Counted from the first letter of the stretch, positions 530 to 18,707 are shown. The stretch is 19,207 bases of DNA from Candidatus Hodarchaeota archaeon (GCA_016840035.1 JAEOTC010000187.1:1-19207), one strand, 5' to 3'. Made by a program: numbers and translations. The notes: generated by a model not told the origin, from the sequence alone.

Positions 530-740
530 GGATGGATTTTCAGTGATCACGATCTTTTACACCAATTAGAGGAATTTTTATGATGGTATGGTACACCGAG
601 ATGCTCCGTGTATTTCTACACACTCCCACGAATCGCACACGGGCTATTGTTTCTAAGCAATGTGGAACTGGGCAGTTCTTTCTTGTTCTACAAGATATTA
701 CTTCAAAGAGTCGTGAAAAGTGTTAGGAATGACTTTTAGG
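530..740 (+). repeat. Structured intergenic element, copy R1 (diverged)
   Basis: Carries the blocks TAGAGGA, GTGTAtttcTACAC, CACGAATCGCACACGGGCTATT, TGTGGAA and AAGAGTCGT shared with other copies. Boundaries approximate. Confidence 0.85.
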
Positions 741-766
741 ATAAAAGAAGGAGAGAGCTTTGTTAA

Positions 767-1750
767 TTATCCAAAATTTCCAAACATTCTCGCTATCATC
801 TGCATCTGAGCTTTATCAGTCAACATATAGGCCCTACCAGGCACCATTATTGTATTTTCAGAAATTCCCATAGATACATGAGTTATAGTAAATCTTGTGG
901 GGTGGAGGTTCTGATTAGAAAGCCAATCACGCACACTTATCGGAGTTCCTGTATAAACAGGCATCGCTGGAACTGTAGGCCCGCTCGGATCCCCAGAGAC
1001 AGGTCTGGTGTGATAACCTAACTGTATCTTCCCATAGTGTTTTGCATACCATCCAAAAAGATCTTGATTCAGTCGATCACAGGTATGAAGCAATCCTACC
1101 TCATCGATAAGAAAATAAAGCATATTTGGCTCCAAAAAGGAACGCCAACCTGGTTTAATTAAGCCTTGCTCAATATGAGTAATCTTAAAGCGATTCGAAT
1201 CCAAATTCTTTGTTTTTAAATAGTCCTTTACCTTAATTTTCTTATTGACCATAAATGACTGAAAGGAGCGATCTACGTCAATTGATTTCGCTGACTTCCA
1301 AGAGGAAATTACAGGTAAAAGCACATTATGATACCAATGTAACGCGGCTTCTTCAGGAGGTGAATAAAATAAAATCTCAAACCCAAGTGAAGCTTTGCTG
1401 TCTAGTTTGAGATTTGAGAAATGCTGAGCATAATCTTCAGATTTACCGCCAGCATAAGTCTTTTCTGAAAGCTGAAGGTCTCCCTTTGAGTTACGGATTG
1501 GCTCCAGAGTGTTAAAAAGCTCCAAAAGTCGTATTGTGTCTTCTAGGAGTTCACTTCGTAGATTAAGAGTGATCTCCTCCTCTTTTTCAAGACTTCCAAT
1601 TTTTTCATAATTTGCTTGAATCCGGGGTACTAACTTAGAGATTTGCTGTTGAAATGCCCCAATTTCATACAGTGATAGAACTTCAAGAATTGAATCTATT
1701 AGAAGTTTATGAATACTTAGATTTGTAAAGGTGATTTCTTGTTTTCCCAT
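767..1750 (-). CDS. Hypothetical protein (327 aa) with a duplicated ~45-aa C-terminal module
   Basis: Long ORF with ATG start and upstream GAGGGAAAG. Internal repeat IKVKDYLKTKNLDSNRFKITH / ISVRDWLSNQNLHPTRFTITH. Confidence 0.85.
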   Translation of the reverse strand: MGKQEITFTNLSIHKLLIDSILEVLSLYEIGAFQQQISKLVPRIQANYEKIGSLEKEEEITLNLRSELLEDTIRLLELFNTLEPIRNSKGDLQLSEKTYAGGKSEDYAQHFSNLKLDSKASLGFEILFYSPPEEAALHWYHNVLLPVISSWKSAKSIDVDRSFQSFMVNKKIKVKDYLKTKNLDSNRFKITHIEQGLIKPGWRSFLEPNMLYFLIDEVGLLHTCDRLNQDLFGWYAKHYGKIQLGYHTRPVSGDPSGPTVPAMPVYTGTPISVRDWLSNQNLHPTRFTITHVSMGISENTIMVPGRAYMLTDKAQMQMIARMFGNFG

Positions 1751-1898
1751 ATCTTTCCCTCAAAGCTGCTCTCACCTTTACCTTTCTCTATTTTAATCTT
1801 TCTCATGATTTACTTTCGACAGAATTTTCAGCAAATGATAAAAATCTGGAATGATGAGTTTTATTCCACTGAAATATTGAATTAAATCAGTCAACTTT

Positions 1899-2140
1899 GA
1901 ATCTTGGGAACTTTCGTGAAAGATATCCCGTTGATAGAGGAGTTTTCGGATAAGAAATACGCGTGGACGGACGCTGACAGGCTCAGTGTTTATTACACAC
2001 TCTCACGAATCGTACACGGGCTATTAACCTTAGATTAGTGTGGAAATGGTCAATCCTCTCGTTTTTTTTAGGAAAAATAGCCTTCAGGAGTCGTTTAAAG
2101 TGTTCTGAAGAGCTTTCTGGTCTTCTGTCTGGTAGATTTC
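1899..2140 (+). repeat. Structured intergenic element, copy R2 (near full length)
   Basis: GGGA..TCCCGTTGATAGAGGAG, ACGCGTGG, GGGCTATT, GTGGAAA, TCCTCTCG, AATAGCC, GGAGTCGT, GTCTGG. Bases 1952-2023 are identical to 6166-6237. Confidence 0.95.
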
Positions 2141-2184
2141 TTTTTTTGATGAGTGATATCACTTTTATCACCTTGCACTCTTCA

Positions 2185-2198
2185 AAGTTTTATAAAGG
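2185..2198 (+). promoter_or_regulatory. Putative archaeal BRE/TATA promoter of the surface protein gene
   Basis: AAAGTTTTATAAAG upstream of ATG 2278. Confidence 0.4.
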
Positions 2199-2277
2199 AG
2201 CGAAGGATATCATCAAAGTGATCAGATTTGTGAGTTGTACGAATCCTCAGAAATTCGCTCTAATCGGTTTGACCTTT

Positions 2278-5088
2278 ATGAAATTAAGTAAAAAACCAGT
2301 GATAAACGTAAAATTGAATGTTCTAATCATTTTATATATCTTAGTGTCTTCAGGCCTTTCCACGTGGTTTGTTTTTGTACCCCCTCAGACACATCCTCTA
2401 GCATCCGATCCATTATCACCTAATAGGAATTTTGCTCTTCCTATGTTTTCCTATCTGACCCATAGCGCTATTTTCATTGATGGCAATTCTGCATTCATTT
2501 CGAATGCTACTGCTGAATCTTGGCCTGGAAATGGTTCTCTAGCTTCCCCCTATCAAATTAATAATTTCAACTTTACAGGTTCTTCTTCTGAAACTCTCAT
2601 TGAAATTCGGAATACTGACCTTTTTTTCAATATAAGTAATTGTTTCCTGGATCGGGGTAAATATAGCATTCTCTTTACTAATGTCACAAATGCGGTTGTT
2701 TATAATAATACTATTCAAAGAAGTAAGGGTCTGGTAGGCCAAGGGGATGCGATTGTTCTGTCTTCCTGTCTTTATAGTAATTTTACCCACAATCGGATTA
2801 TAGGCCATGACCATATCGCATTTAGCATTAGTAATTCAGATTTTCTTACTATTTCCTATAATAATATTTCTCACAATCGTTATGGAGGTATTTATCTCAG
2901 TAGTTCCCATAACAATACACTTACTTACAATTCTCTCCTCAATTCTTCCAATAACGGAATCTCCCTTGGAGCTTCACGAGATAATCTAGTGTCTAATAAT
3001 GTGCTCGAAGATCAAGGAAAAGGGCTCTACTTATCTTCTGGTTCTAATACCAATAATATTACTCATAATCAGCTCGGGAATATTGGTGACAACGGTATTC
3101 GTATTACCTCCTCATATTCCAACCGTCTAATTAATAATACTCTTAATGAAACTGCCCGGAATATCTTTCTACAGACTGCTCCGAATAATACTCTTATCGA
3201 TAATCATCTTGCTGTTTTAGGTATCCATATGTCTGGAGATACTCTAAAGGATTATCTACAAACCCAAGTCGTAAATAATTGGATTAATAACCGTCCCCTG
3301 ATCTTTTGGCAACATATCAATGGAGGGATTGTTCCATCTGCTGTTGGACAGGTAATATTACTTAATTGTACATTTATTGAAATCTCTAATCAAAATCTGT
3401 CTAATCTTACAAGCGCCTTACAATTTATATTTTGTAAAAACATGACTATTACTAATAACACTGTTTCTGATGCTGATTATAACGGCATCTATCTCTATAA
3501 TACACATATGAGCCTTATCCAAGGAAATAATTTCTATCGACCCGTTTCTATAGGCATTTACGTTGTTTATTCCCATAACAACTCTATTTTCGAAAATTCT
3601 ATCATTGAATGTGAAGACACCAGCTTGTATGTGTGGGGTTCTCATCAAAATAATTTCTCCCAAAATGCAATTACTCGTTCTCTTGGGTGGGGAATGCTTA
3701 TTGGTCAAGCAAATAATAATACAGTGATGTTGAATCGGTTCCAGAACTCTTCTTTTGAAGCTATTTACTGTTATGATTCAAATCGTAACCACATTGAACG
3801 AAATGATTTTCTTTTCAATAATCTCGGTAGTTCTCAAGCTTTTGATGACCAAACCAATCCTTCCTTGAAGAATATTTTCTCGTATAACTACTGGAACACT
3901 TGGACTACTCCTGATAATGATTCAGATCGGATAGTGGATCACCCATATGAGATTGGTGGATCGGCCAACAATCAGGATCTCTACCCATTGACGCTTCCGT
4001 ATCTTCTATTTGTACATAAGGTTACACCTCCCATTTTGGTTAATCCCAACGGAGGAGAAATTTTATCAGGAATGATTACGATTCAATGGGCGATGTCTAT
4101 TGATTCTTGGGATCACAACATTAGCTATACCCTTTACTATTCTTCTGACAATGGTTCTTCATGGCATTTACTTCAGACTGGTCTATCAGTGACTACTTAT
4201 GATTGGGATACAAATACAGTTGCTGATGGTTCTGAATATCTGATAAAAGTTGTTGCTAATTGCTCTGAAGGATTATTCTCGACTGATTTTTCTGATAGTC
4301 CTTTTATAATAAAGAATTTGAAGCATGTATTATCCATACCTCATGTTCTCTATCCTAATGGTGGTGAAATCCTGTCTGGGGAGATTTCCATTCATTGGAA
4401 TACTGCCACTGATTCATGGAACCATTTAGTGCTATATAGTATATATTATTCTTCCAATAATGGCTCTACTTGGAGTTTACTCACGTCTGATGTTGTTTCC
4501 GATGTGTATAATTGGAATATTTCAGCTTTGGATAAAGGAAATTATCTTATCAAGGTTGTAGCCAATTGCATAGGTGGTTTAACTACTGCTGATATTTCTG
4601 ATAATACTTTTAGCATAACAGATATAGATCATAGTATTTCACCTCCACAGATTATTTATCCCAATGGGGGAGAAATCCTTTCAGGTAATGTTCAATTTCA
4701 ATGGACTGAGGCTGTTGATTCACTCAATCATCCAATTACTTATGATCTCTACCTTTCGTATGATAATGGTGTTTCTTGGTTTGAATTGGGGAGCAGCCTA
4801 ATGACTTCTAGTTACTTGTGGAATTCTACAAGTGTTGCTGATGGGGGAACTTATTTGATAAAAATTCAAGCTACTTGTTCTGAGGGATTTATAGGTGAAG
4901 ATATTTCTGACAATGTTTTTTCAATTCAGAATGTTCTCAAGACTACAACGGAATCTCCCACCGTTCCACCAGAGACCTCAGCCACTTCAACAACCACAAC
5001 TACTTCTGACCGAAGTAGTCCCTCTTGGTCTTTCATTTTAGTATTTATTTCCTTACTCGGTCTTTTCATATCTAATAAGCGTGACTGA
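2278..5088 (+). CDS. Cell-surface protein: N-terminal TM/signal, NosD/pectin-lyase-like right-handed beta-helix, three PNGGE Ig/FN3-like domains, Ser/Thr linker, C-terminal membrane anchor
   Basis: Repeated GIYLxxSxNNxIxxN motifs, GNGSLASPYQI, three (N/Y)PNGGEILSG repeats, and TTTESPT..PSWSFILVFISLLGLFISNKRD tail. Start moved from 2038 (GTG inside repeat R2) to ATG 2278, just before the hydrophobic segment. Confidence 0.9.
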   Translation: MKLSKKPVINVKLNVLIILYILVSSGLSTWFVFVPPQTHPLASDPLSPNRNFALPMFSYLTHSAIFIDGNSAFISNATAESWPGNGSLASPYQINNFNFTGSSSETLIEIRNTDLFFNISNCFLDRGKYSILFTNVTNAVVYNNTIQRSKGLVGQGDAIVLSSCLYSNFTHNRIIGHDHIAFSISNSDFLTISYNNISHNRYGGIYLSSSHNNTLTYNSLLNSSNNGISLGASRDNLVSNNVLEDQGKGLYLSSGSNTNNITHNQLGNIGDNGIRITSSYSNRLINNTLNETARNIFLQTAPNNTLIDNHLAVLGIHMSGDTLKDYLQTQVVNNWINNRPLIFWQHINGGIVPSAVGQVILLNCTFIEISNQNLSNLTSALQFIFCKNMTITNNTVSDADYNGIYLYNTHMSLIQGNNFYRPVSIGIYVVYSHNNSIFENSIIECEDTSLYVWGSHQNNFSQNAITRSLGWGMLIGQANNNTVMLNRFQNSSFEAIYCYDSNRNHIERNDFLFNNLGSSQAFDDQTNPSLKNIFSYNYWNTWTTPDNDSDRIVDHPYEIGGSANNQDLYPLTLPYLLFVHKVTPPILVNPNGGEILSGMITIQWAMSIDSWDHNISYTLYYSSDNGSSWHLLQTGLSVTTYDWDTNTVADGSEYLIKVVANCSEGLFSTDFSDSPFIIKNLKHVLSIPHVLYPNGGEILSGEISIHWNTATDSWNHLVLYSIYYSSNNGSTWSLLTSDVVSDVYNWNISALDKGNYLIKVVANCIGGLTTADISDNTFSITDIDHSISPPQIIYPNGGEILSGNVQFQWTEAVDSLNHPITYDLYLSYDNGVSWFELGSSLMTSSYLWNSTSVADGGTYLIKIQATCSEGFIGEDISDNVFSIQNVLKTTTESPTVPPETSATSTTTTTSDRSSPSWSFILVFISLLGLFISNKRD
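4015..4930 (+). repeat. Three tandem ~102-aa Ig/FN3-like domain repeats inside the surface protein
   Basis: H-x-(V/L/I)-(T/S)-x-P...PNGGEILSG...W...D...Y...S(D/N)NG.SW......Y.W......G.YLIK..A.C..G....D.SD..F.I at ~306-309 nt spacing. Confidence 0.85.
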
Positions 5089-5143
5089 AACTGAAAGATT
5101 CTCTTTGATTGGCCTTCTATTCTTCCATTTCCTTTGCAAGAAT

Positions 5144-5284
5144 AATCGCACAAGGGCTATTGTTTCTAATCAATGTGGAAATCCTCCGTCCTCTCGTTTT
5201 CTAGAAGAAATAGCCTCAAGGAGTCGTAAACGTGTGTGAATATAATAAAAAGAGAATTCGGGTCTTATGTCTGGTGGTCACTGC
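5144..5284 (+). repeat. Structured intergenic element, copy R3 (5'-truncated)
   Basis: AATCGCACAAGGGCTATTG..TGTGGAAA..TCCTCTCG..AATAGCCTCAAGGAGTCGT..GTCTTATGTCTGGTGGTCAC. Confidence 0.92.
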
Positions 5285-5349
5285 TTATTGGTGATATCGT
5301 GAAGAGTATCTAAAGTGTGTTTTAGGTGTTTACGGGATCTTCGTCAAAA

Positions 5350-5757
5350 TTAATAAAGGTAGGTCTTTATTTTTAAATTCTGGATTGGAGGTAAATTTTT
5401 TTCGGTAGTATGTAGGACCAGTTTCTCATTTAAGGCATAGGCGATAACCAGACAATCAAAGTATGATAGAATGCGTCGATATTGGCATTTTAAACCTCCT
5501 GCTTTTAGGAGAGTATCATTCGTAATAGGGACCAGTACGAGGGGATAATTCAACTGTAAGGCACTTATACTGGCTTCTGCGAAAGATTTTCCTTTTGCAA
5601 TGCATAAATGGTTAAATACCTCTACTAAGATGGGGGAAATGACATATGCTTCAGTTTTTTGGTGTTTAATTTCTTGCATTAATTTTGTTATTTCTTTTGG
5701 TTCATCTCTGGTAAAATGTAGAGTCAGGGGTCCTGTATCAAGACAGATGGCTTTCAT
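5350..5757 (-). CDS. vapC: PIN-domain ribonuclease toxin (VapC family)
   Basis: N-terminal CLDTG, conserved E (ILVEV), LSYFDC and LHTTE. 135 aa. Overlaps the upstream AbrB-type gene by 4 nt. Confidence 0.88.
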   Translation of the reverse strand: MKAICLDTGPLTLHFTRDEPKEITKLMQEIKHQKTEAYVISPILVEVFNHLCIAKGKSFAEASISALQLNYPLVLVPITNDTLLKAGGLKCQYRRILSYFDCLVIAYALNEKLVLHTTEKNLPPIQNLKIKTYLY

Positions 5758-5996
5758 TTTTCTTCTAGCTCCAGTTCTTCTTCTCTGGATCTTTTCAGAA
5801 TTTCCATCATTTCTTTTGTGGTTAATGATCTGTTCTGAAGACTTTCAATAGATTCTACTGGAACAATTCTCAACATTCCTTCATCCTCAATGACTATTAC
5901 CTGATCACCATCCTTTAATCCAAATTTTTTTCGAAGGTTAGCAGGGATAGTGATCATCCCTCTATTTGTCACTTTTACTATTCCATCAAGTGTCAC
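5754..5996 (-). CDS. vapB: AbrB/MazE/SpoVT-family antitoxin (VapB)
   Basis: KVTNRGMITIPANLRKKFGLKDGDQV is a classic AbrB swapped-hairpin signature. Acidic C-terminus. Confidence 0.9.
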   Translation of the reverse strand: MTLDGIVKVTNRGMITIPANLRKKFGLKDGDQVIVIEDEGMLRIVPVESIESLQNRSLTTKEMMEILKRSREEELELEEK

Positions 5997-6028
5997 ATCA
6001 AATCACTTAGCAAATAAGTGAATATGCA

Positions 6029-6044
6029 AGTATTTAAGCTTTTT
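6029..6044 (-). promoter_or_regulatory. Putative BRE/TATA promoter of the first vapBC pair
   Basis: Minus-strand AAAAAGCTTAAATA about 35 nt upstream of the 5996 start. Confidence 0.5.
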
Positions 6045-6111
6045 GTTTAGCGATTTCCTTATCTCACATATAGTCTTTTAGGGAGAAAATATAGATTGAA
6101 GTGAACGAAAA

Positions 6112-6348
6112 CGAGTGCGGGGATGTTTCTTCAAAAAAATCCCGTTGATAGAGGAGTTTTCTTTAAAGAAATACGCGTGGACGGACGCTGACAGGCTCAG
6201 TGTTTATTACACACTCTCACGAATCGTACACGGGCTACTAAATAAAATTTAGTGTGGAAATGGTCAGTCCTCTCGTTTTCTTCCAACAAGAGCCTCAAGG
6301 AGTCATCAATGTGTGTTTCTTCTGATTTTATGTCTGGTGGTCACTTTC
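6112..6348 (+). repeat. Structured intergenic element, copy R4 (near full length)
   Basis: GAGTGCGGGGAT..ATCCCGTTGATAGAGGAG through TATGTCTGGTGGTCAC. 72-nt identity with R2. Confidence 0.95.
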
Positions 6349-6375
6349 TCATTTTAAAATCAATGAATTATAGTT

Positions 6376-6590
6376 TCACCATCTTTCTGCCCGTTTTTTC
6401 CTCCGAGGATGCGGTTTTCGGGTCCGAAACATACTGAGCTTCTTACGTGGCTTATCCCCTTTAGTCTTCTTCTTATAATGGACGACTTCCCCCCGTTTTA
6501 ACCGTCTTCCCATTTTTTTCCCGTTCCCTGTAGAGGGCCTGATATTTTTGAATCATCAGACCGTTTCTCACCTTTCCTATGTCTAATCAT
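6376..6590 (-). pseudogene. Decayed, frameshifted small HNH endonuclease-like gene
   Basis: Two frames join as MIRHRKGEKRSDDSKISGPLQGTGKK / MGRRLKRGEVVHYKKKTKGDKPRKKLSMFRTRKPHPRRKKRAERW. This resembles the KKLGRxLxxGEVVHHxxxxKxDNxxxNL pattern of HNH_3-type nucleases, but with catalytic residues altered. Confidence 0.5.
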
Positions 6591-6639
6591 CCTTACTATG
6601 GTTCTCTTTACCTTTTTCCTTATCCTTTTGATTTCTGGT

Positions 6640-6663
6640 GAGTCGAATTCAGCTGAATGACTC
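6640..6663 (-). terminator. Inverted repeat downstream of the hydrolase gene
   Basis: GAGTC-GA-ATTCAG|CTGAAT-GACTC, about 15 nt after the stop at 6678. Confidence 0.3.
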
Positions 6664-6677
6664 GGTTATTGTAGATT

Positions 6678-7765: not shown

Positions 7766-7836
7766 TCTTTAGCTTTAAAGAAGGAAAGTTTCATTCCTCT
7801 CGTGTTTATGTAGAATTAGCCTCCAGGAGTTGTAAT
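7766..7836 (+). repeat. Structured intergenic element, copy R5 (internal fragment)
   Basis: Hairpin TCTTTA-GCTT-TAAAGA, then GGAAAGTTTCATTCCTCTCG..TAGCCTCCAGGAGTTGT. Confidence 0.8.
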
Positions 7837-7849
7837 CATAGATGGAAGG

Positions 7850-7894: not shown

Positions 7895-7895
7895 A

Positions 7896-8141
7896 ATGAT
7901 GACATCACATGAAAAAGTAGTTCAAACTACCCTGTCTCCCGAGGAACACGCGATTCTTCGTGATTATGCGACTCAACATGATCTATCTATTAAAGAAGCA
8001 GTAAAGATAGCTATTCTTGCTCTTCTCAAGAGTGATCAGATTGAGGCAAATGATCCCTATTTTTCTTTGAAAACTAAATCATTTGTTACCGTTGAGAAGG
8101 CCTCTCAAGAAGTAGATCGAATTATCTACAAAGTTGACTAA
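7896..8141 (+). CDS. Ribbon-helix-helix (CopG-like) antitoxin
   Basis: KVVQTTLSPEEHAILRDYATQHDLSIKEAVKIAI fits a beta-alpha-alpha pattern. C-terminal ASQEVDRIIY is typical of archaeal VapB. Lies directly upstream of a PIN gene. Confidence 0.82.
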   Translation: MMTSHEKVVQTTLSPEEHAILRDYATQHDLSIKEAVKIAILALLKSDQIEANDPYFSLKTKSFVTVEKASQEVDRIIYKVD

Positions 8142-8173
8142 GTTTCTATTATTTTCGTGGTTAAGGTGTAAAA

Positions 8174-8578
8174 ATGATTTTTGTTGATACGGGTGCATTT
8201 TTTGCTTCTAAAGTGTCTAATGATATCAATCATTCTTCCGCTCTTCTAATTGAAGGGCAAATCCAGGAGGGAAGATATGGGAAGATGATCACAACGAATT
8301 ACATTCTTGATGAGCTTTTCACGTTGTTACGGGGTCGTGTGGTTCATAATGAACTTACTCAAATTGGCGAATCTATTAGAAACTCACCTAACATCCGAAT
8401 TATCTGGATCCAAGAAGCATTAGAAGCAAAAGGGTGGGAATTTTTCAAGCAACACCAGGATAAAACCTTTAGTTTTACTGACTGTATGAGTTTTGTCGTT
8501 ATGCAGACTTTAAACATAACTATTGCCTTTACCTATGATTCCCATTTTGAACAGGTTGGTTTCCAAATTATCCAATGA
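8174..8578 (+). CDS. vapC: PIN-domain ribonuclease toxin (VapC family)
   Basis: MIFVDTGAF, ILDE, FSFTDCMSF and AFTYDSHFEQVGF give a complete acidic tetrad. Confidence 0.93.
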   Translation: MIFVDTGAFFASKVSNDINHSSALLIEGQIQEGRYGKMITTNYILDELFTLLRGRVVHNELTQIGESIRNSPNIRIIWIQEALEAKGWEFFKQHQDKTFSFTDCMSFVVMQTLNITIAFTYDSHFEQVGFQIIQ

Positions 8579-8582
8579 ATCC

Positions 8583-8979: not shown

Positions 8980-9276
8980 ATGCCTATTTATGTAGTTTTA
9001 GGAAATTATACTCAAAAGGGAGTTGAGGGAGTAAAAGAAACAGATAATAAACTCAATTTAACGTATGAGTGGATTAAAGATTATCAAGGTGAAGTTAAAC
9101 AGCTTTTTTATACTTTTGGCCAATATGATTTTGTCACCATTGTTGATTTTCCTGATAATAACGCCATGATGAAAGCGGCTCTTAGACTTGCGAAATCAGG
9201 AGAAGTTCGGACGGAAACATTGATTACAATATCTGCAGAGGATTATGTTTCTCTTACCAAAGAATTACCAGACTAA
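8980..9276 (+). CDS. GYD-domain protein
   Basis: MPIYVVLGNYTQKG..YTFGQYDFVTIVDFPD..GEVRTETL. RBS AGGAGG and upstream TATA (TTATATA ~8876). Confidence 0.9.
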   Translation: MPIYVVLGNYTQKGVEGVKETDNKLNLTYEWIKDYQGEVKQLFYTFGQYDFVTIVDFPDNNAMMKAALRLAKSGEVRTETLITISAEDYVSLTKELPD

Positions 9277-9320
9277 TCCCCGACATAGAAATGTGAAAAT
9301 GTTCAGTCCTGCCGTTAAAA
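9277..9320 (+). repeat. Structured intergenic element, remnant R7
   Basis: Collapsed blocks (A)TCCC, CGACAT and ATGTGAAAATGTTCAGTCCT..CGTT directly after the GYD stop. Confidence 0.5.
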
Positions 9321-9427
9321 GGATTTCCGAGAAGATTATTTAGACTGAAGAATAACCCTCTAAGGAATATAAAGCCAGAAGTTACCTTTAAAAGGATTAA
9401 TTCAGACTAATTTACTTGAGAAAGAGA

Positions 9428-9577
9428 ATGTTTAGGAAAAGGTCTCCTTTTATTCGGAAACCAAAGAAAGGAGATATTGATAAAGAAGTTATAGAGCAGA
9501 TTGAAGACACCAAACGCAAGATGAAGGAAAAAATCCCTCGTACTTCCAAGGAAAAGGAACAAGAAGAATCTGAATAA
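9428..9577 (+). CDS. Small charged hypothetical protein (49 aa)
   Basis: Manual translation MFRKRSPFIRKPKKGDIDKEVIEQIEDTKRKMKEKIPRTSKEKEQEESE. Purine-rich coding-like strand, below the ORF-track cutoff. Confidence 0.45.
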   Translation: MFRKRSPFIRKPKKGDIDKEVIEQIEDTKRKMKEKIPRTSKEKEQEESE

Positions 9578-9625
9578 GGAAATTGGAGAGATTTCGTCTC
9601 CTATTACTTTCTTGTTTACTCATCG

Positions 9626-11554
9626 TTGTTTAAGTTGCTATCAATTATGAGAACCAATTTTCCAACTGGTACACAGCTTAAATTAGTAGTTGCAGCCGTT
9701 GTCCTTGTTTTCTCCATATTAGCTATCACCATAGAATTCATTCCCTTCAAATCCGATAATTTCGTTTTGTCTGAACCTGATTTGACTGGTCATCTCCCCT
9801 TAAGTGCTGCTATTCATCAATCAAAGATAACTACAGATTTATATCCTCACGATCTAAGTGTTGAAGAGCTATCTCAGCTCCTGTGGGCATTACAAGGTAC
9901 CACTCATGGTCCAGGGTTTCGAACCGTTCCTTCTGCAGGTGCAACCTATCCGTTAAAGATTTTTGTTCAACATAATGGAAGTTCTTCTCTCAGTCGCGGA
10001 TATTACAGCTACAATTCCGATGCACACGAATTAAAGTTACATTTTTCTATTATTAACAAATCTCTATTAGTTCCTACTCTTTTACCTGAGGATCAAAGCT
10101 CTATTGCGAATATTACGAATATCTTCTACGTTTTTGCAGATTTTAATCGAACTACAGATCGCTATGGCACAAGAGGAATTCAGTATGTCCATTTAGAGGT
10201 AGGTCATGCTCTTCAAAATTTCCTTCTCCAACTTACCTCTTTGAATTTAAACACCTGGGTAATTTCAGATTTTAATACGACACAAGTTAAAGCATTGCTT
10301 CACACATCATTACAACCTCTTCTTATATTGCCTGTTGGTCAAGATCAGGGTAATTTAAAGAGGTTTTCGAAATTAGACGTTCGATCCGTGATAACTACAG
10401 AAGAAATGACTGTAGAGCAAGCTATTGCGAAACGTAAATCCACTCGAGACTATGTTAGTGGATTAGTTCCCTTTTCGATTCTTAGGGATATCTTGAATGA
10501 TTGTATAGATATTGCTTTTCCTATAGAAAATGTATCCATTATCGATCTTCGTCTAGTTGTTGGTAAAGTAAACGGATTATCTATGGGCATGTATTCTTAC
10601 TCCTTGATTAATCGTTCTCTTAAGCAGTTTCACGAGGGAGATGTACGTAATTCCTTGAGAAAAGTAGCATTAGATCAATCTTGGGTTGAATCTGCTCAAC
10701 TCAGTCTAATTATATCTGCTAATATGACTTGGATGGATCAACAATCTGATCCTAATCTTTCATATCGGAGATTGATGTCGAATATCGGGATGATCGCCCA
10801 AAATATTTATCTTAAATGTGCTGCTCATTCTCTGGGCACCGTAGTTATCGGTGCGTTTAGTGACGGGGATGTTGCTCAGTTATTAGAGATTCCTAACTCA
10901 CATACTCCTTTTTATATTCTTCCAGTTGGATTAATCCCAGCGTTTTTTGATAAAGAAACTGGCCCCTTTGGCTCTTTGTCTGAAATTGGCCATTATATCG
11001 GATTATTTTCCTTCGTTTTATTCTATACTAGCTTTTACCTGACCCTCCCTGTATTGAAACGACGGTTAAGACGGCAAGTTTTATGGTCTCATTACTTTTC
11101 TGGCTCCCTCCTCGCAATATCTAGTGTATTTCATTACATGGTTTTGCACGGCCATGTAAAATCTATTTCGGAGTTCTCAGATGTTACTATTTATATATCA
11201 GCTGTTGTTGATTTTCCAAGCGTATTTTTTGCTTTTCCTACAACCCGTTATGATGTGGGCCAATTTCTTGCAACACTTGGTTTCATTTCTGGGACGATTT
11301 TTACTGTTTCTGGTTTTTTTATGGTCTTAGAAGTTGGCTCTTATCGAAGAATCCTGCGTACTATTCACAAATATTCTGTTTTCACTACTCTTATTTTCAT
11401 TATAATCCATAATCTATTTAATGGAACCTTTCTTGTGATCAAACCTCATATATTCCTTTATCTAAATATTTTATTTTTTACTTTGTATTTCTTCATTCAC
11501 AATTCTTTCGAGGAGCTGAGACAATATCGAAAACACCTCGGTTCTGCTAATTGA
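9626..11554 (+). CDS. Tandem SagB/ThcOx-family nitroreductase domains fused to a C-terminal cytochrome-b-like membrane domain
   Basis: ELSQLLWALQG, RTVPSAGATYPL, RYGTRGIQYVHLEVGHALQN. Second domain AKRKSTRDY..AQNIYL..LGTVVIGAF. C-terminal TMs with two H-x13-H motifs. Start may be ATG 9647. Confidence 0.88.
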   Translation: MFKLLSIMRTNFPTGTQLKLVVAAVVLVFSILAITIEFIPFKSDNFVLSEPDLTGHLPLSAAIHQSKITTDLYPHDLSVEELSQLLWALQGTTHGPGFRTVPSAGATYPLKIFVQHNGSSSLSRGYYSYNSDAHELKLHFSIINKSLLVPTLLPEDQSSIANITNIFYVFADFNRTTDRYGTRGIQYVHLEVGHALQNFLLQLTSLNLNTWVISDFNTTQVKALLHTSLQPLLILPVGQDQGNLKRFSKLDVRSVITTEEMTVEQAIAKRKSTRDYVSGLVPFSILRDILNDCIDIAFPIENVSIIDLRLVVGKVNGLSMGMYSYSLINRSLKQFHEGDVRNSLRKVALDQSWVESAQLSLIISANMTWMDQQSDPNLSYRRLMSNIGMIAQNIYLKCAAHSLGTVVIGAFSDGDVAQLLEIPNSHTPFYILPVGLIPAFFDKETGPFGSLSEIGHYIGLFSFVLFYTSFYLTLPVLKRRLRRQVLWSHYFSGSLLAISSVFHYMVLHGHVKSISEFSDVTIYISAVVDFPSVFFAFPTTRYDVGQFLATLGFISGTIFTVSGFFMVLEVGSYRRILRTIHKYSVFTTLIFIIIHNLFNGTFLVIKPHIFLYLNILFFTLYFFIHNSFEELRQYRKHLGSAN

Positions 11555-11656
11555 AACAAGTTTATTGAAGAAATATTTTTGTCCAAATATTCCAAGGGAG
11601 AACCTAGAAAAGACGAATCTATTTTACCATCTGTTTAAAAGCCATGGGGATTGGCG

Positions 11657-11920
11657 ACGATAACCATGAGATGGTAACCGAGTGCTGGGATCATTCTTGA
11701 AAGCTATCCGTTGATAGAGGAGTTTTCTTAACAGAAATACGCGTGGGGGTCTGTCGACATGTTCAGGGTAGTTTAACTCACTCCCACTACTCACACACGG
11801 AGTACTAATGACATTTTAATGTGGAAATTGTCAGTCCTCTCGTTTCCTAGAAGTAATAGCTTATAGGAATCTAATAGCGTGTGTTCGTGAGTTTTCTGGT
11901 CTTATGCCTACTGGTTAACT
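11657..11920 (+). repeat. Structured intergenic element, copy R8 (full length)
   Basis: ACGATAACCATGAGATGGTAACCGAGTGCTGGGAT..ATCCGTTGATAGAGGAG..ACGCGTGG..GTGGAAA..TCCTCTCG..TCTGGTCTTATG. Confidence 0.93.
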
Positions 11921-12002
11921 TTTATTTTTTCTAAGAGTCTCCCACTATTAAGAGTTAGAAATATCCTACTGGAATCGTTCTTTAGTAAGCGTAATCAGCT
12001 TC

Positions 12003-12518: not shown

Positions 12519-12574
12519 CTTAGACCTAGAGTGCAGTCAGGCTTTAAGATTTTCTTATCTAGGTATGTAACTCG

Positions 12575-12685
12575 GGGAATTATCCCTAGCATTGGTCAGG
12601 CCTTTCGCTTTCTCAAAGAAATAGCCTCAAGGAGTCGTCAAAAGTGTTTTCGTGAGTCTTCTAGTCTTATGTCTGAAGGTTTCTT
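12575..12685 (+). repeat. Structured intergenic element, copy R9 (3' half)
   Basis: GGTCAGGCCTTTCG..AGAAATAGCCTCAAGGAGTCGT..TTCGTGAGTCTTCTAGTCTTATGTCTG, preceded by a mini GGGA-ATTA-TCCC hairpin. Confidence 0.88.
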
Positions 12686-12718
12686 ATTTCACAAGTTCGT
12701 TTCTACAATCATAATCAC

Positions 12719-13780
12719 TTAGGAAATCCATTCCGATGATCTGGAAATTAACCATCGAAGTTGAAAATCCGTGGCTATTAAGCTAATCTGATATACTGTC
12801 ACTCCCCATGCATCTAACGCCATACTAAATGAATCTATCATGATTTTTTGAAATATTACCCAGCCTGCTGTGATATTAGCTTCAGCTAGAGGTCCTGTTG
12901 TTAGCCAACTGTAACTAGGACTAAGTCCGTCTTCTAGTATTCCATTTAGCCCTGTTCCTATGTATTTTGTCCAGTCGCTTCTAATGGATAAGTATGTGTA
13001 ATTCATTTCCTCAAAGGGGACTGCCCATGCGATATAGATTATGGAGATCCGTGGTTGTCCTCGATACTCGGTATAATATTTTATCGAAGTAGTATTGATA
13101 ATTGCGCGAGTTACCCCCCCATAGCTCGGAATTGTCCAATCTACATATGAATTTTCCGTTCCTGCAAGTGATCTTGCTTCTTCTATCAAATTCGAATTTT
13201 CCAGATTTTCGATGGCAGCTAATCCTCCCTCCGCAGTTGTATTTCGGAGTACTTTCTTATCATAGAAGTGGAAAGAAAACTCTTTTGATCGCCCGATCGT
13301 GTTGTTAAGATAACAAGAGGAAAGTTCAAGAGATCCCCATGTACCCGCCATACTCTTCGGCCAGGACCACTGATTATAGGTAATGAGCAAATAAGCGATC
13401 CCTGAAGCATTGGTTGTTACGCTTAACCCTAGTTTTTTTGTTAAATTAAATTCCTCTGACCATTGGCTGAACCATGAATATATGATTCCAAGGGTTAAGT
13501 TGATGAATATTCCTGGCCGTCCTTGTGCATCTCTTAAACCAGCAATGATTTCCATTTGATCCTCGTGTCGAAAGAATGATCCGCTACTATTGAGGTTTTT
13601 GACATGAATATGTTCTGAAGTATTTGTTTTCGGATTATAGAATGAGGCGGTATTTAAATCAAATACTATTTCTTCTTCGGGCTCTTTTTTTGGAAGTTGA
13701 ATACATCCACTAAGGAGGAGAATCAGACTCGTGCTTAGGACGAACAATAGTCTATAATATTCTCTTGATCCCCGATTCAT
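12719..13780 (-). CDS. Putative lipoprotein of unknown function
   Basis: Hydrophobic signal with lipobox LLLSG-C. Several NxS/T sequons. Confidence 0.82.
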   Translation of the reverse strand: MNRGSREYYRLLFVLSTSLILLLSGCIQLPKKEPEEEIVFDLNTASFYNPKTNTSEHIHVKNLNSSGSFFRHEDQMEIIAGLRDAQGRPGIFINLTLGIIYSWFSQWSEEFNLTKKLGLSVTTNASGIAYLLITYNQWSWPKSMAGTWGSLELSSCYLNNTIGRSKEFSFHFYDKKVLRNTTAEGGLAAIENLENSNLIEEARSLAGTENSYVDWTIPSYGGVTRAIINTTSIKYYTEYRGQPRISIIYIAWAVPFEEMNYTYLSIRSDWTKYIGTGLNGILEDGLSPSYSWLTTGPLAEANITAGWVIFQKIMIDSFSMALDAWGVTVYQISLIATDFQLRWLISRSSEWIS

Positions 13781-14084
13781 TATGTGATCATCCTAAGTGG
13801 ATCTCTTTTAAGCAATTCATCCTTCTTGCTTGTTGAAAGAAAGAATTGGCTAATATTCACTTCGTCTCAATATAAATACTTATCTTTAGATGGTTCACAC
13901 TTTCTTCTCTAATCTGATTTTAGGGAGTAATTTTCGAAGCTGGCTTTCGTCAAACAATTATTTACCACATTTTATCCTTCAAAAAACTTGAGAAAATTGG
14001 ATGTATTCCAATCGCAGATTCTTAAGATTTTATGATAGTTTTTTATATCTTCGTGGAATTTAAACCCACTTGAGGTAATTTCGA

Positions 14085-14975
14085 TTGAAAATTAAAGCAG
14101 TAAAAGTCATCAGTTTCTCCCCAACTGGGGGTTCAAGAAAGGTGGCTGAAACTATCGCCAAAGGTATCCAAGCCCCCATAGAATATGTCGATTTGACCCC
14201 ACCAAGTGCACGAACCGAAAATTTTCCAAAATTCACCGATGAACTCGCCATTATTTCCGTGCCCGTCTATGCAGGACGTGTACCTACCGAAGCTGCCTAT
14301 CGGATACGCAGGTTGACAAGTAACCGGGAACCCTACGGTGCTAAACGTCCACATAAAATTCCCACCGTCATTGTGGTCACCTACGGAAACCGAGCCTACG
14401 AGGATGCACTATATGAATTAGGTGACATCGTTTCGGAAGTAGGATTCCAACCCATCGCTGCTGGCGTCTTCTTATGTGAACATTCATTTAGTGTCCCTGA
14501 GGTGCCAACCGCGCATGGACGACCAGACACAAAGGATCTTGCAAAAGCAGAAGCCTTTGGAAAACAGGTCCGGGCCAAGTATGCGAAGACTGATACGATT
14601 GAGAACCTCTCCCCCGTAACTCCGCCTGGAACAAGCCCATACTCGTTATCAATGAAGGCTAATCTCACCTGGTACGACTACAGCGAATTAGCTACTCCTT
14701 ATACCAACGAAGACCAATGTACGAAATGCAGATCTTGTGTTGATGTATGCCCTACTGCCGCGATTCGAATCCAACATGTATCATCCAATCCCTCACCAAT
14801 GATTGGTTACAATCTTCGGTTGATTTCTACCGACCACAATGCATGTATCTGGTGTTGTGCCTGCGTCAAAAACTGTCCCACTGGTGCACGCGTTATGAGT
14901 CGCCGCATCCTCAAATCACAAAGCGACCTGAATAAAGGCTACTCAGACAGAAAGGAGCCTGAAACCTACATCTAG
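14085..14975 (+). CDS. Flavodoxin-like plus 2x[4Fe-4S] ferredoxin protein (EFR1-like)
   Basis: FSPTGGS, PVYAGRVP, YGNRAYEDAL, EHSF, GRPD, then CTKCRSCVDVCP and CIWCCACVKNCP. RBS GAGGT before the TTG start. Confidence 0.92.
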   Translation: MKIKAVKVISFSPTGGSRKVAETIAKGIQAPIEYVDLTPPSARTENFPKFTDELAIISVPVYAGRVPTEAAYRIRRLTSNREPYGAKRPHKIPTVIVVTYGNRAYEDALYELGDIVSEVGFQPIAAGVFLCEHSFSVPEVPTAHGRPDTKDLAKAEAFGKQVRAKYAKTDTIENLSPVTPPGTSPYSLSMKANLTWYDYSELATPYTNEDQCTKCRSCVDVCPTAAIRIQHVSSNPSPMIGYNLRLISTDHNACIWCCACVKNCPTGARVMSRRILKSQSDLNKGYSDRKEPETYI

Positions 14976-15021
14976 CCTATCACCCATGCACATTCCAAGA
15001 AAATAAAAAGTGGGCACTAAA

Positions 15022-15035
15022 TCTGGTGGTCACTT
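15022..15035 (+). repeat. 3'-terminal block of the intergenic element, remnant R10
   Basis: TCTGGTGGTCACTT, identical to the end of R4 (6333-6346). Confidence 0.6.
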
Positions 15036-15160
15036 CTTTCCAAGATTTCTCCTATCGAAATTCCACTTCACCAAGTTTCAATATTGAGAGCTCTCTCTAT
15101 GAACTTCGCTAGAAGGTCAAGGAATGGTGTTTTTTAAAGATTAAAAAAAAAGGATAAATT

Positions 15161-15475
15161 ATGGATTCAGAAAATAGTTCAGCTCTCATCGCGTATGAAA
15201 AGAGAATAGAAAATTATAGAAACTCGTTTGATAACCGTGTCATGAATATTGTAATACTAGTGATTGTAGAAGTACTCAATATCATGTTTACAATACTCTT
15301 CAGCATGTTAGAATGGCCCGAGCTGGAGGGGGTATGCCTATTGTTAACATTCATACTTTCAACGGTATTCATTTTTCTTCTGGCTGATACCGTATTTTCT
15401 TTAATACCAAAGCGGCTACAAGCCACTGAAGAGATGATTAGAGTCATGTTTGAAGAAAAGGGAAAATTAGCGTGA
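15161..15475 (+). CDS. Small two-TM membrane protein
   Basis: ATG start, two hydrophobic segments, flanked by R10 and R11. Confidence 0.75.
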   Translation: MDSENSSALIAYEKRIENYRNSFDNRVMNIVILVIVEVLNIMFTILFSMLEWPELEGVCLLLTFILSTVFIFLLADTVFSLIPKRLQATEEMIRVMFEEKGKLA

Positions 15476-15500
15476 GGTATATCACTAAGATTAGCTTATT

Positions 15501-15590
15501 CGTCCTCTCGTGTTTCATTAATCCTCTCAATTTCTTTAAGTATTCAGTAAGGAGTCGTAAACATGAGTTTGTGATGAGTACTGGTCTTAA
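15501..15590 (+). repeat. Structured intergenic element, copy R11 (degenerate 3' half)
   Basis: GTCCTCTCGT..AAGGAGTCGTAAAC..CTGGTCTTA. Confidence 0.75.
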
Positions 15591-15649
15591 CTTTCCAATT
15601 AACGTGTAAAACTAGGTAGGGGAATCACTCCAAAGAATTAAGGTTAGTG

Positions 15650-15698
15650 AAAAACTTTATATATAGAGTTAACTATTTTTGGTTACTATGGTAACCAA
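15650..15698 (+). promoter_or_regulatory. TATA promoter and palindromic operator of the HTH operon
   Basis: AAAAACTTTATATA, then perfect inverted repeat TTGGTTAC-TATG-GTAACCAA (15679-15698) centred on ATG 15688. Confidence 0.65.
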
Positions 15699-16164
15699 TC
15701 TTGGTAAATATCATCCTCTCAAATATCCCACATTAATCCAGGTGGAGATCTGGTTTCTGAAGAGAAACGCTATTTCGGGGAGAAAAATCGCTAAGGAACG
15801 TGGGGTTACCCCTGCTTTTATTAGTAAGACCTTAAAAGAAGCCAATAAACGAATCAAAATACTTTTAAAAAGCACGGCCAAAACCAATAAGATTTCTTTA
15901 GACTTCATCAGTCCAGAACATGGGTTTGCCAAAGGAAGAAGTCATATGTTTGGTATAAAAGCCTATATCACTTTCTCACCTGAAAATGGAATTCAGGTCT
16001 GGTATGTACACAAAGGTAACTGCTCAACGTGTGAAGAATTTTCTCATTGTCGTGATCTCTTAATTAAAGAATTTAAGGAGCGTAACATCAAAATTGACAA
16101 TCCCCAATTAAGACCAACTGATCTTGGGGATATTTTGCTTAAACATTTGGAGGAGTTAGCGTAA
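15688..16164 (+). CDS. Archaeal HTH transcriptional regulator with C-terminal Cys cluster
   Basis: SGRKIAKERGVTPAFISKTL is HTH-like. HxGxCxxCxxxxxC near the C-terminus. ATG 15688 preferred over TTG 15679. Confidence 0.8.
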   Translation: MVTNLGKYHPLKYPTLIQVEIWFLKRNAISGRKIAKERGVTPAFISKTLKEANKRIKILLKSTAKTNKISLDFISPEHGFAKGRSHMFGIKAYITFSPENGIQVWYVHKGNCSTCEEFSHCRDLLIKEFKERNIKIDNPQLRPTDLGDILLKHLEELA

Positions 16165-17588
16165 TGATAAGAACTCCTACAAGAAATAAATATCGTGCAG
16201 GGGGATATTTTCTGCCTGTTTGTATTAAGGCTCCCCCTCAACGTCAAAATTCTCTTTCTACCCTCGGTTCTTTAATTTTAATCTCATTACTTTTAATTCT
16301 AATTTTGGTTCTTCCTTTGGAACAGCATAATTATTCCTCTGAGCAGGTACTTATGCTAGCTCCGTATGTGTATAAAAGTAATTCCACTAGCGATCCCCAT
16401 AGCCTGATCCAAACGACTGATGGTGGGTTTGCTATTTCAGGAGTAATTAATCTCTACAACATTTCATGTGGTCATCGTTTATGGCTCGTTAAAACTGATT
16501 TAAACGGAAGAATAGAATGGCATCGTTCTTTTGGAAGAACTCTCTGTACTCGAACTCCTTTATCTCGTATGTGTGACACCCATTCCGTTGTGATTCAAAC
16601 GACTGATGGTGGTTATGCTCTTGCCTGTGATTTCAATTCTTCTAGTAATTACGGAATCGACTTCTGGTTGTTAAAAACTGACTTTAATGGTCAACCTGAG
16701 TGGAATACCACCGTTGGTGGCAGTAATGATGAGAGATTCTTTTCCTTAATCCAAACTGAAGACGGTGGGTATGCTCTTGCTGGGGATACCCAATCATTTG
16801 GTGTTGGTAAGAAAGACTTTTTCTTGGTGAAACTTGGTCCTACTGGTCGACTTGAATGGAATACATCCTTCGGCGGGAGCTTTGATGAGACTGCTTCTTC
16901 TTTAATCCAGACCCTTGATGGAGGGTATCTACTCGCTGGACAAAAAGCAACTACAGACGTAGGAAATTATGATGGCTGGCTAGTAAAAACAGACCAATAT
17001 GGATTGTATGAATGGGATCTCTCTATGGAGGGGATAGAGTGTGCATACTCTTTAATTCAAACTTTAGAGGGTAATTATGTCTTCTTAGCTCGAGAAAGTA
17101 ATTATTCTCCAGGTTGGTATTTTATGAGGGTTGACAGAGAGGGTCATAATGTATGGGATTTGCCTATACCTGGGGTTGCCGATTCTTCGCTTGTTTCCAT
17201 CATCCAAACTACTAACACTGGATATGCTATTACTGGTACTTATACTTGGCATGACCTCTTCTTGTTGAAAACAAACTCCGTCGGATATATAGAGTGGACC
17301 CGAACCTATGAAAAGGCCCAGCGCGATATTGCAAGCGATTTAATCAAAACGACCGATGATGGATATGCTCTCCTTGGATGGACCGAAGAATGGTCTAGAA
17401 TGTGGTTACTGAAAACTGATTCCCATGGTGTAGCCCAGTGGAATAGAACTGTCGGCAATTATGAGGAATATTATACTTACTTAAGCTCACAATCATCAAG
17501 CTTCCCCGAATTGAACCTCTTCGGTTTTGTTTTTTGGGGAATATTGATTTTTACCTTGATTTACCAGAACAGACGGAAAAGAATGTAA
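16164..17588 (+). CDS. Secreted, membrane-anchored beta-propeller-like repeat protein
   Basis: About 7 repeats of SLIQTxDGGYALAG...WLLKTDxxGxxEWN. N-terminal TM, C-terminal S-rich linker, TM and RRKR. Start overlaps the regulator stop (TAATG). Confidence 0.88.
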   Translation: MIRTPTRNKYRAGGYFLPVCIKAPPQRQNSLSTLGSLILISLLLILILVLPLEQHNYSSEQVLMLAPYVYKSNSTSDPHSLIQTTDGGFAISGVINLYNISCGHRLWLVKTDLNGRIEWHRSFGRTLCTRTPLSRMCDTHSVVIQTTDGGYALACDFNSSSNYGIDFWLLKTDFNGQPEWNTTVGGSNDERFFSLIQTEDGGYALAGDTQSFGVGKKDFFLVKLGPTGRLEWNTSFGGSFDETASSLIQTLDGGYLLAGQKATTDVGNYDGWLVKTDQYGLYEWDLSMEGIECAYSLIQTLEGNYVFLARESNYSPGWYFMRVDREGHNVWDLPIPGVADSSLVSIIQTTNTGYAITGTYTWHDLFLLKTNSVGYIEWTRTYEKAQRDIASDLIKTTDDGYALLGWTEEWSRMWLLKTDSHGVAQWNRTVGNYEEYYTYLSSQSSSFPELNLFGFVFWGILIFTLIYQNRRKRM

Positions 17589-17638
17589 TAGCTTTGAAAG
17601 TCATATCTCTAAGAAAATACATTAGAGGGTGTTAAAAA

Positions 17639-18508
17639 ATGAAATATAAAGTAGAAAAATTAACAGTCCTGATATTGTTACTTCTTCTCCCCTTTTTTTT
17701 GAGGGGAGCTGAGCTTACCCCTGTAACAGGGGCAAATGACCCACCCGGTCCTAATCCGATCCTCTTTCTTCACGGAATGAGTGATAATATGGGTGCTTGG
17801 GGATGGATCCTCCAAAAAATGTTCTACGAGGATGGTTGGCAAAATGCAACCGTATCCACCCCTCATTACGAATATAATTTTCCAAATTCGTCTAGTTGCG
17901 CTGCTCAAGCCAATATCGTAAATGCCAATCACATCAAGCAATGGGTTGAAACGATTTTAGATGAAACGGGTGCAGACAAGGTTGATCTTGTAGCGCATAG
18001 TATGGGAGGCTGGAGTAGTCGTTATTATCTTAAATCTCTCGGTGGAACTGAATATGTTGATGACTTTGTGAGCTTAGGAACTCCCCATGCTTATGATCCC
18101 TGGTCAGTTACCAATTGTGATGGTTTTAGTGACTTTATGTTTGGTTTAAACGATGGAGATGCTTCCCCAGGTGGGATTCTGAATGATACGCTGGGAGAAC
18201 GGGTTGATCCTATGAATACTTCCATTGTCTATTCGGGGGCTCATGTTTCTGGTAACGTAAACTATACCTCGATTTATAGTCGTGAGGATGAATATGTACC
18301 GTATAAATGCAGTTATCTTGATGGAGCTCATAATATTGAAGTTCGAGATTTAACTCATATGCAATTATTGAATGATAGAACTGTGTACAACCTCATTATA
18401 GCGGCTCTAGATGATAGGGTAAGAACTTCAGCAAGTAGCTCTGATTTTCTCTATCTCTTTAGTTCCTTCTTTGTGCTGGTGATTTTTTTCCGAAAAAGGA
18501 CTAGATAA
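17639..18508 (+). CDS. Secreted alpha/beta-hydrolase (lipase/esterase, lipase_2-like) with C-terminal anchor
   Basis: PILFLHG oxyanion motif, VDLVAHSMGG nucleophile elbow, SREDEYV (Asp) and LTHMQLL (His). Signal peptide and TM-RKRTR tail. Confidence 0.92.
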   Translation: MKYKVEKLTVLILLLLLPFFLRGAELTPVTGANDPPGPNPILFLHGMSDNMGAWGWILQKMFYEDGWQNATVSTPHYEYNFPNSSSCAAQANIVNANHIKQWVETILDETGADKVDLVAHSMGGWSSRYYLKSLGGTEYVDDFVSLGTPHAYDPWSVTNCDGFSDFMFGLNDGDASPGGILNDTLGERVDPMNTSIVYSGAHVSGNVNYTSIYSREDEYVPYKCSYLDGAHNIEVRDLTHMQLLNDRTVYNLIIAALDDRVRTSASSSDFLYLFSSFFVLVIFFRKRTR

Positions 18509-18533
18509 GACATCCCGTGTTCTCATGCAGGTT

Positions 18534-18707
18534 ATCCCGTAGCAGTCTAAGTGTGGAGATATATCGACATGTTTCGTGTCTTCCACACCTCCCACTCCTC
18601 ACACACGGGTTTTTTCTTCAGAAAAGTGTGGAAAGTTTCAGTCCACTCGTTTACTAAAAGTTGTAGTCTATAGAAGTTGTGAGAGTGTGAAGAAGTGTAT
18701 TCTAGGT
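18534..18707 (+). repeat. Structured intergenic element, copy R12 (diverged, internal deletion)
   Basis: ATCCCGT..GTGTGGAG..CGACATGTT..CTCCCACTCCTCACACACGGG..GTGTGGAAAGTTTCAGTCCACTCG. Confidence 0.85.

Follow-up and report, generated by a model that had tools for sequence, protein, structure and literature searches.

What is the repeated sequence that stands between unrelated genes in a 19,207-nucleotide stretch of DNA from a Candidatus Hodarchaeota archaeon (GCA_016840035.1 JAEOTC010000187.1:1-19207), and how did the genes come to lie between its copies? This stretch, here called the window at its full length, had been described in an initial annotation as a locus resembling a cassette array, in which about 12 copies of an undescribed non-coding element of about 250 bp, all on the + strand, delimit diverse genes. 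By the alignments reported here, the element comprises the 3'-terminal part of the 23S ribosomal RNA (rRNA) gene and about 150 nt of 3' trailer. With a probability of roughly 0.6, the locus belongs to an array that hangs behind the 23S gene, has copies of the gene's tail as its joints, and would have been built by tail-based insertion and by recombination between tails. Genomes, contigs and loci are denoted by G, C and L numbers, and G000 is the genome of the window.

Identity and edges of the repeat

We built an nhmmer profile from four copies of the window and iterated it over the whole genome (293 contigs); an extended model was used as well. Nine copies in the window were matched at E<1e-5, the longest of them with bounds of 11507/11673-11938, and ten of the matches from the whole-genome run lie in the window. 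The sites near 9277, 15022 and 15501, missed or weakly scored by the profile, are worn remnants that were recognised by reading the sequence, so that every one of the 12 sites of the initial annotation is real (Table 1). Both strands were searched; every copy lies on the + strand and none was found on the - strand of the window. The size of about 250 bp, on the other hand, held for the four longest copies only, and most are shortened at the 5' side to 50-150 bp. The cut point of the remnant at 9283-9316 is identical to that of tails in G004 and G020. A repeat search of the window gave 13 direct-repeat families, of which D1-D7 and D9-D11 tile one common unit, and two inverted repeats only, both weak.

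Some copies on contig C162 of G000 and in sister genomes reach about 200 nt further in the 5' direction. These long copies matched positions 2721-2973 of 2987 of the Rfam model LSU_rRNA_archaea (E 2.8e-59 to 4.6e-35), and the sarcin-ricin loop AGTACGAGAGGAAC is present in their alignment. Because the long copies match large-subunit (LSU) rRNA and the window copies align continuously to their 3' part, what had been taken for an undescribed element can be assigned to the 23S tail together with the processing-stem trailer. The window copy at 11585-11938 begins at about 23S position 2865 and those at 1898, 6107 and 8583 at about 2886, while most of the remaining copies consist of the last ~30 nt of 23S and ~150 nt beyond. 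Rfam gave no match in the window, even at E 10 for the longest copy, because too little of the 23S gene is left in the window copies; ARAGORN found no tRNA there. The true 23S gene of G008 is unbroken across model positions 2545-2987. We rejected the idea that the copies are functional LSU rRNA or a piece of a split rRNA, as they start abruptly at 2721, ~2890 or ~2955 with unrelated DNA upstream. In all long tails, about 55 nt are also inserted between LSU model positions 2882 and 2883 (window 11600-11660; L005:4350-4405). This expansion segment close to the 3' end of 23S is lineage-specific, and its first part coincidentally resembles an open frame ending in ...ECWD.

Edge classes were drawn from 117 copies of six species in the coordinates of the extended model. 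The 5' starts fell mainly into three clusters, at 0-40 (23S ~2721), 250-300 and 340-360, with few starts between; 23S ~2721 is the first base of the helix enclosing domain VI in the Rfam structure line. The 3' ends clustered at 480-500, after ...GGTCTTATGTCTGGTGGTCAC, and are followed by a T-rich run and then by unrelated DNA. The shared 3' edge, at the end of the functional precursor, and the 5' edge of the long class, at the start of the domain VI helix, are as expected if an incoming tail must work as rRNA.

When the trailer boxes of G008 are paired with the 16S-23S spacer, a helix of roughly 26 bp results, interrupted by small bulges. This helix may represent the expected 23S processing stem of the precursor rRNA, an assignment with moderate support, because the long-range energy of the whole leader-trailer duplex reached only z -2.5 against shuffles. 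Two short AU-rich hairpins of the tails are variable in sequence, and their pairing is kept via compensatory changes (anchored pair counts). Pairing was 82% versus 66% after partner shuffling in one hairpin and 88% versus 81% in the other, and 0 of 1000 shuffles reached the observed value, a test that overstates the significance because the sequences are related to each other. RNAalifold on a MAFFT alignment recovered a 4-pair stem only, since the variable hairpins misalign. Copies in the G008 array bear the G008-type trailer, not the G000 type. The native 23S tail of G008 (L041:13940-13990) reads GGGCTAACCGTGTGGAAA, without hairpin 1; nearly all G008 array copies have a palindrome of 12-14 nt where the native tail has ACCG, and a few G000-type copies are of the short form.

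Arrays behind the rRNA operon

The place of the arrays can be seen in two sister genomes. In G008, the true 23S (model 2545-2987) is cut off by the end of contig C8, and at least eight tail copies lie behind it over 52 kb in the same orientation; at the end of contig C9 of the same genome are the 16S gene and positions 1-1452 of the 23S. On G005:C44, true 23S sequence upstream of 2721 is followed by at least one weak further copy (E 0.0013). The distal array ends on G000:C28 and G004:C196 adjoin largely the same core-gene set in rearranged order. From G008, G005 and these flanking core genes, the window would most plausibly be an internal part of an array hanging behind the rRNA operon, and not part of a free-standing one. 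No 23S gene was found in G010, G016 and G007, each listed as a single contig, and these genomes were of no use as closed references. The 16S gene of G008 spans 2225 nt versus a model of 1478 positions (L042:1695-3919), and 337 nt are inserted in its 23S gene near model position 2650 (L041:13937-14756); both are probably rRNA introns or large expansion segments.

The iterated search found 34 copies on 12 of the 293 contigs of G000. The contigs concerned are short (4-20 kb), apart from the 147-kb C28, where copies occupy the first 10 kb, and the 143-kb C184, where one weak 37-39 bp match is the sole exception to array confinement. Wherever a contig holds several copies, they all point the same way. 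In six congeneric genomes, the 117 copies at 26 loci were 100% co-oriented inside each locus, for which random chance would be ~2^-91, and the array stretches examined held 4-14 tail copies each. With a window copy as BLAST query, the element was matched in 4 of the 21 other species of the genus; with the 23S part as query, several 23S-tail fragments were found in at least 9 of 22 congeneric genomes. Metagenome contigs gave 24 pattern matches, of which 8 were true homologues, all on contigs of 1-3 kb that gave no informative surroundings.

This distribution decides against the other explanation offered with the initial annotation, a strand-biased miniature inverted-repeat transposable element or another small mobile non-coding element that inserts between the genes of a variable region. 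Such an element would account for the many short copies (~140 nt) with fairly uniform edges, and for one high-identity pair in which the centre of the tail was inherited with neither flank. However, the copies are confined to arrays behind the rRNA gene instead of being scattered, their sequence is the rRNA tail itself, and their flanks are mutually unrelated. They have neither terminal inverted repeats nor target duplications nor a linked TnpA, HUH or reverse transcriptase gene, and no copy was found in viral contigs. An IS200-IS605-type non-autonomous element fares no better, as TnpB genes are numerous in the genome, yet only one lies on an array contig. We therefore rejected this explanation as very improbable.

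Reshuffling and mechanism

Many cassettes are common to several species at 83-96% identity with differing neighbours. The order NosD, vapBC(-), vapBC(+), nitroreductase of the window corresponds in G004 to nitroreductase, vapBC(-), vapBC(+), NosD, and the orientation relative to the tails is unchanged despite the permuted order. We compared 16 pairs of shared blocks, the borders of which were set by a strict identity criterion. In 9 of the 16, the block starts in both genomes at the 3' edge of the upstream tail or up to ~60 nt past it, and the blocks end inside the downstream tail at variable points (143, 192, 320, 365 and 413). The best pair (96.5% identity) has its upstream break at ~484 and its downstream one at ~320, and the hairpin region between the breaks belongs to different tail variants in the two genomes. 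Because gain, loss and reordering of modules in relatives break in or at the element, these data speak for the shuffling that the initial annotation had proposed. One fixed site would give equal break positions, so variable crossovers or conversion tracts fit better, and homologous recombination or gene conversion between tails is favoured because the crossover points within tails vary.

The same breaks bear on an integron-like reaction, in which an unrecognised trans-acting recombinase or the host XerA would act at one site close to the tail's 3' edge, the ...GGTCTTATGTCTGGTGGTC box, and circular cassettes of genes plus a tail copy would enter and leave as in attC x attI reactions. The common start of the bodies at or just past the upstream-tail 3' edge in 9 of 16 pairs agrees with such a site, although this shared edge is also simply the end of homology and of the processing stem. 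The body is inherited together with the beginning of the downstream tail, as this reaction would have it, but the downstream breaks vary, and the two breaks of the best pair are ~160 nt apart, contrary to a single site. Two structure-conserved, sequence-variable hairpins recall attC, and no tandem tRNA-island array comes near these arrays in length (four arrays of three or more in Islander, PMC4383910). Against this, neither a 28-bp 11-6-11 Xer-type site, of the kind that bounds pdif (IMEX) modules, nor any other inverted-repeat site was seen by inspection of the tail and its conserved boxes, where the dif consensus of the genus was not available for a model, and no array-linked candidate enzyme was found in five genomes. 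We consider this reaction unlikely. The GGCTGGATT motif occurs at chance-level frequency in the window and without pattern in the genome.

The search for an enzyme covered the families PF00589, PF00239, PF07282, PF14528, PF00961, PF01844 and PF01541 across the five genomes, and about 70 array open reading frames (ORFs) were scanned with Pfam. All matches to PF00589, PF00239, LAGLIDADG_1, LAGLIDADG_3 and GIY-YIG are on non-array contigs, so that a linked tyrosine or serine recombinase did not emerge; PF00589 is represented by one Xer-like gene per genome, and none of the tyrosine recombinases is upstream of the G008 rRNA operon. That the window itself encodes no catalytic enzyme, as stated in the initial annotation, agrees with the Pfam scans. 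The isolated matches on array contigs are one TnpB (G000:C121) and one HNH (G008:C8, ~36 kb from the head). The TnpB, an IS605-family protein of 426 aa, lies within one cassette interval (G000:C121:1029-1229, L006), and TnpB matches number 3-19 per genome. Viral contigs contained no exact match to the core, and no virus or plasmid carrying a tail was found.

rRNA genes are classic targets of homing endonucleases. A cut-and-copy process could be considered, in which a nuclease cuts a conserved 23S site, repair brings in a replacement tail with the nuclease gene and cargo, and the old tail is pushed downstream; the discrete 5' edges would then be cut sites. An element next to the 16S gene of Heimdallarchaeum does carry a homing-endonuclease homologue (Wu et al. 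2022, PMC8813620). Here, the LAGLIDADG and GIY-YIG families are absent from array contigs, the single HNH is far from the G008 head, and the head cassettes of G008 and G005 have no nuclease domain by Pfam, which divergent nucleases could escape. Moreover, the upstream tail should travel with the body, whereas only its last ~15 nt do, and we regard this process as quite improbable.

The reading we prefer is that of an array behind the 23S gene with tail copies as joints. According to it, incoming DNA would bear its own copy of the rRNA tail and insert through recombination inside the 23S tail. Each insertion would add one co-oriented tail copy downstream, because recombination falls within the carried tail. 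The accumulated tails would then serve as portable homology for recombination. Recombination between tails together with gene conversion would allow cassettes to be deleted, duplicated, moved and exchanged, never inverted, and after accretion would lead to reordering and mosaic tails. The insertion step would most likely depend on general homologous recombination or on a trans-acting factor that escaped recognition.

Several points weigh against this reading. The tails are just 70-85% alike, which is low for efficient homologous recombination, and this process alone explains neither how new genes first acquired a tail nor why the 5' edges are discrete. The native G008 tail is without hairpin 1, though most array copies have it, which is unexpected if every copy had once been a working tail. 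The G000 genome has no assembled 23S gene. Nor was a recombinase, homing endonuclease or transposase found tied to the arrays by the Pfam scans of the five genomes, and no recognisable enzyme of these kinds is encoded in the cassettes next to the true tail in G008 and G005 or upstream of the G008 rRNA operon. Circles or alternative junctions were not shown in public reads; a single marine-sediment study has the window in four runs, at ~5x depth and only in short Logan contigs. Read "joints" were rejected as evidence of excision, since they had sides of <45 nt joining different tail copies and were cross-matches of paralogues.

A stronger version of the array behind the 23S gene is possible, and we put it forward tentatively as the less probable form. 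The tail of the Hodarchaeales rRNA operon might be a dedicated, integrase-free platform for gene capture and shuffling, and not an accumulation of insertions that ordinary recombination rearranges, with working replacement 23S tails on the cassettes, and a nursery of accessory genes including small-GTPase families. Insertion and exchange would then be carried out by an unrecognised enzyme or by recombination guided by the tail hairpins. From the capture or shuffling platform of the initial annotation, the integron-like layout and the shuffling stand, now anchored on the rRNA operon, and an array-linked enzyme was not found.

Cargo genes and related systems

The genes between the copies are unrelated and lie on both strands; by Pfam they include NosD/beta-helix, two PIN-antitoxin pairs, YdjM, GYD, nitroreductase, ferredoxin-type, lipase and RING proteins. 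Co-oriented joints and diverse cargo with toxin-antitoxin pairs thus agree with the initial description of a cassette-array-like locus.

Table 1. Copies of the 23S-tail repeat and selected cargo genes in the window
Feature	Position	Strand	Basis
23S-tail copy, both ends shortened, extended-model 329-451	591..723	+	nhmmer E 1e-13
23S-tail copy: last ~90 nt of 23S (helices 99-101), trailer, 3' edge intact	1898..2150	+	nhmmer E 1e-60; extended model 290-496
1016-aa NosD/beta-helix protein; also in G004, G014 with other neighbours	2173..5121	+	Pfam
Short-class tail copy: last ~30 nt of 23S and trailer	5143..5292	+	nhmmer E 3e-36; extended model 358-498
AbrB/MazE-type antitoxin and PIN toxin	5350..5996	-	Pfam
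23S-tail copy, middle class, 3' edge intact	6107..6355	+	nhmmer E 5e-62
Worn trailer-core fragment	7782..7835	+	nhmmer E 5e-9
Antitoxin and PIN toxin; also in G002, G004, G014 with other neighbours	7896..8578	+	Pfam
23S-tail copy, middle class, begins 5 nt past vapC stop codon	8583..8845	+	nhmmer E 4e-41; alignment
GYD protein and 642-aa nitroreductase; nitroreductase cassette without GYD in G004, G020	8980..11554	+	Pfam
Trailer-core remnant holding core ATGTGAAAATGTTCAGTCCTGCCGTT	9283..9316	+	direct reading; homology to L028/G004 tail
Longest window copy: 23S from ~Rfam position 2865 to 3' end, lineage-specific insertion, full trailer	11585..11938	+	nhmmer E 1e-97 (extended model); alignment with long copies
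Trailer-only copy, 3' edge intact	12593..12689	+	nhmmer E 2.5e-21
3'-terminal remnant, 3' end TCTGGTGGTCACTTCTT	15000..15040	+	direct-repeat family D6; direct reading
Degenerate trailer copy	15508..15590	+	nhmmer E 0.005; direct reading
23S-tail copy, middle class, worn 3' end	18504..18709	+	nhmmer E 4e-22

Small GTPases are the commonest array cargo (e.g. L001:461-1123 and L041:12197-12778), being found at L001, L004, L005, L008, L024, L026-L031, L033, L037 and L041. BLAST clustering put 18 Ras/Roc-type ORFs in one group and 3 Gtr1/RagA-like ORFs in another, with more in G008, and the GTPase expansions typical of Asgard archaea may have their nursery in these arrays. The G008 cassette L041:6685-8612 is an AbiEi/AbiEii type IV toxin-antitoxin pair; as it joins the two PIN pairs of the window, addiction modules recur as cargo. 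In the window, the ferredoxin-type (4Fe-4S) region at 14000-15000 has 44-48% G+C, and since this is above the ~36% of the genome, a recent foreign origin is suggested. In a 474-aa ORF that Pfam did not match, a 32-nt motif occurs five times at spacings of 141-453 nt (16405-17372), and the product is probably built of repeated domains.

No description of 23S-tail cassette arrays was found in the literature searched, nor one of the tail of a large-subunit rRNA gene as the joint of arrays of many small cassettes in a prokaryote. The layout explains why Asgard metagenome assemblies break at the arrays and at the adjoining rRNA operon. For the closest archaeal relatives of eukaryotes, it also gives a concrete locus for the entry and movement of accessory genes, among them those for Ras/Rag-type GTPases, toxin-antitoxin pairs and surface beta-helix proteins. 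Because incoming tails would join the ribosomal RNA precursor, the arrays have a bearing on how much variation of the rRNA tail and processing stem is tolerated.

Among known systems, islands at tRNA and transfer-messenger RNA (tmRNA) genes restore the 3' end of the gene with incoming DNA and leave the old fragment downstream, and can stand in tandem, which is the principle behind Islander (Hudson, Lau and Williams 2015, PMC4383910); the tycheposon islands of Prochlorococcus are a further case (10.1101/2020.12.28.424599). The likeness lies in a structural RNA gene as target, its 3' part carried by incoming DNA, a gene regenerated at the head, and displaced 3' fragments downstream that are co-oriented, varied in length and common in their 3' end, with cargo between. 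A regenerated 23S at the head with co-oriented 3' fragments behind is seen on G008:C8 and G005:C44 and would hold for G000 by extension. Unlike these islands, the arrays have as their target the 23S rRNA gene and the trailer of its processing stem, and their units have 1-3 genes and are very numerous (34 tail copies in G000), whereas arrays of three or more are rare in Islander. No unit has an integrase (Pfam, PF00589), and the crossover points in the repeat vary.

Archaeal integrons are reportedly the subject of work by Ghaly et al. in 2022. The present arrays share with integrons and with clusters of attC sites lacking an integron integrase (CALINs) the co-oriented joints, the small unrelated cassettes including toxin-antitoxin pairs, the order reshuffled between relatives, and joints whose hairpins are conserved in structure and variable in sequence. 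However, attC sites are single imperfect palindromes of 57-141 bp with R''/L''-L'/R' boxes, whereas the joint here is 140-470 nt long and rRNA-derived, and no RYYYAAC/GTTRRRY boxes were seen in the alignments. There is no IntI beside the 23S-tail arrays of the five genomes by PF00589, the genes lie in both orientations, and the anchor is the rRNA operon, not attI and Pc. The locus is thus not an integron, as had been argued before from the lack of attC boxes.

In fungal mitochondria, mobile endonuclease ORFs carry a duplicate of the end of the host gene. There, as is proposed here, the insert brings a new end for the gene and leaves the old one behind it, so that cast-off tails stack; in the 23S-tail arrays, in contrast, no endonuclease gene was found within or at the head, and the upstream tail is not co-inherited. 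The rDNA-specific elements of eukaryotes, the R1/R2 retrotransposons and Pokey, insert inside the gene, encode their own enzymes and build no arrays of gene tails with host-type cargo. What they have in common with the arrays described here is the use of the large-subunit rRNA gene as a safe and conserved landing site.

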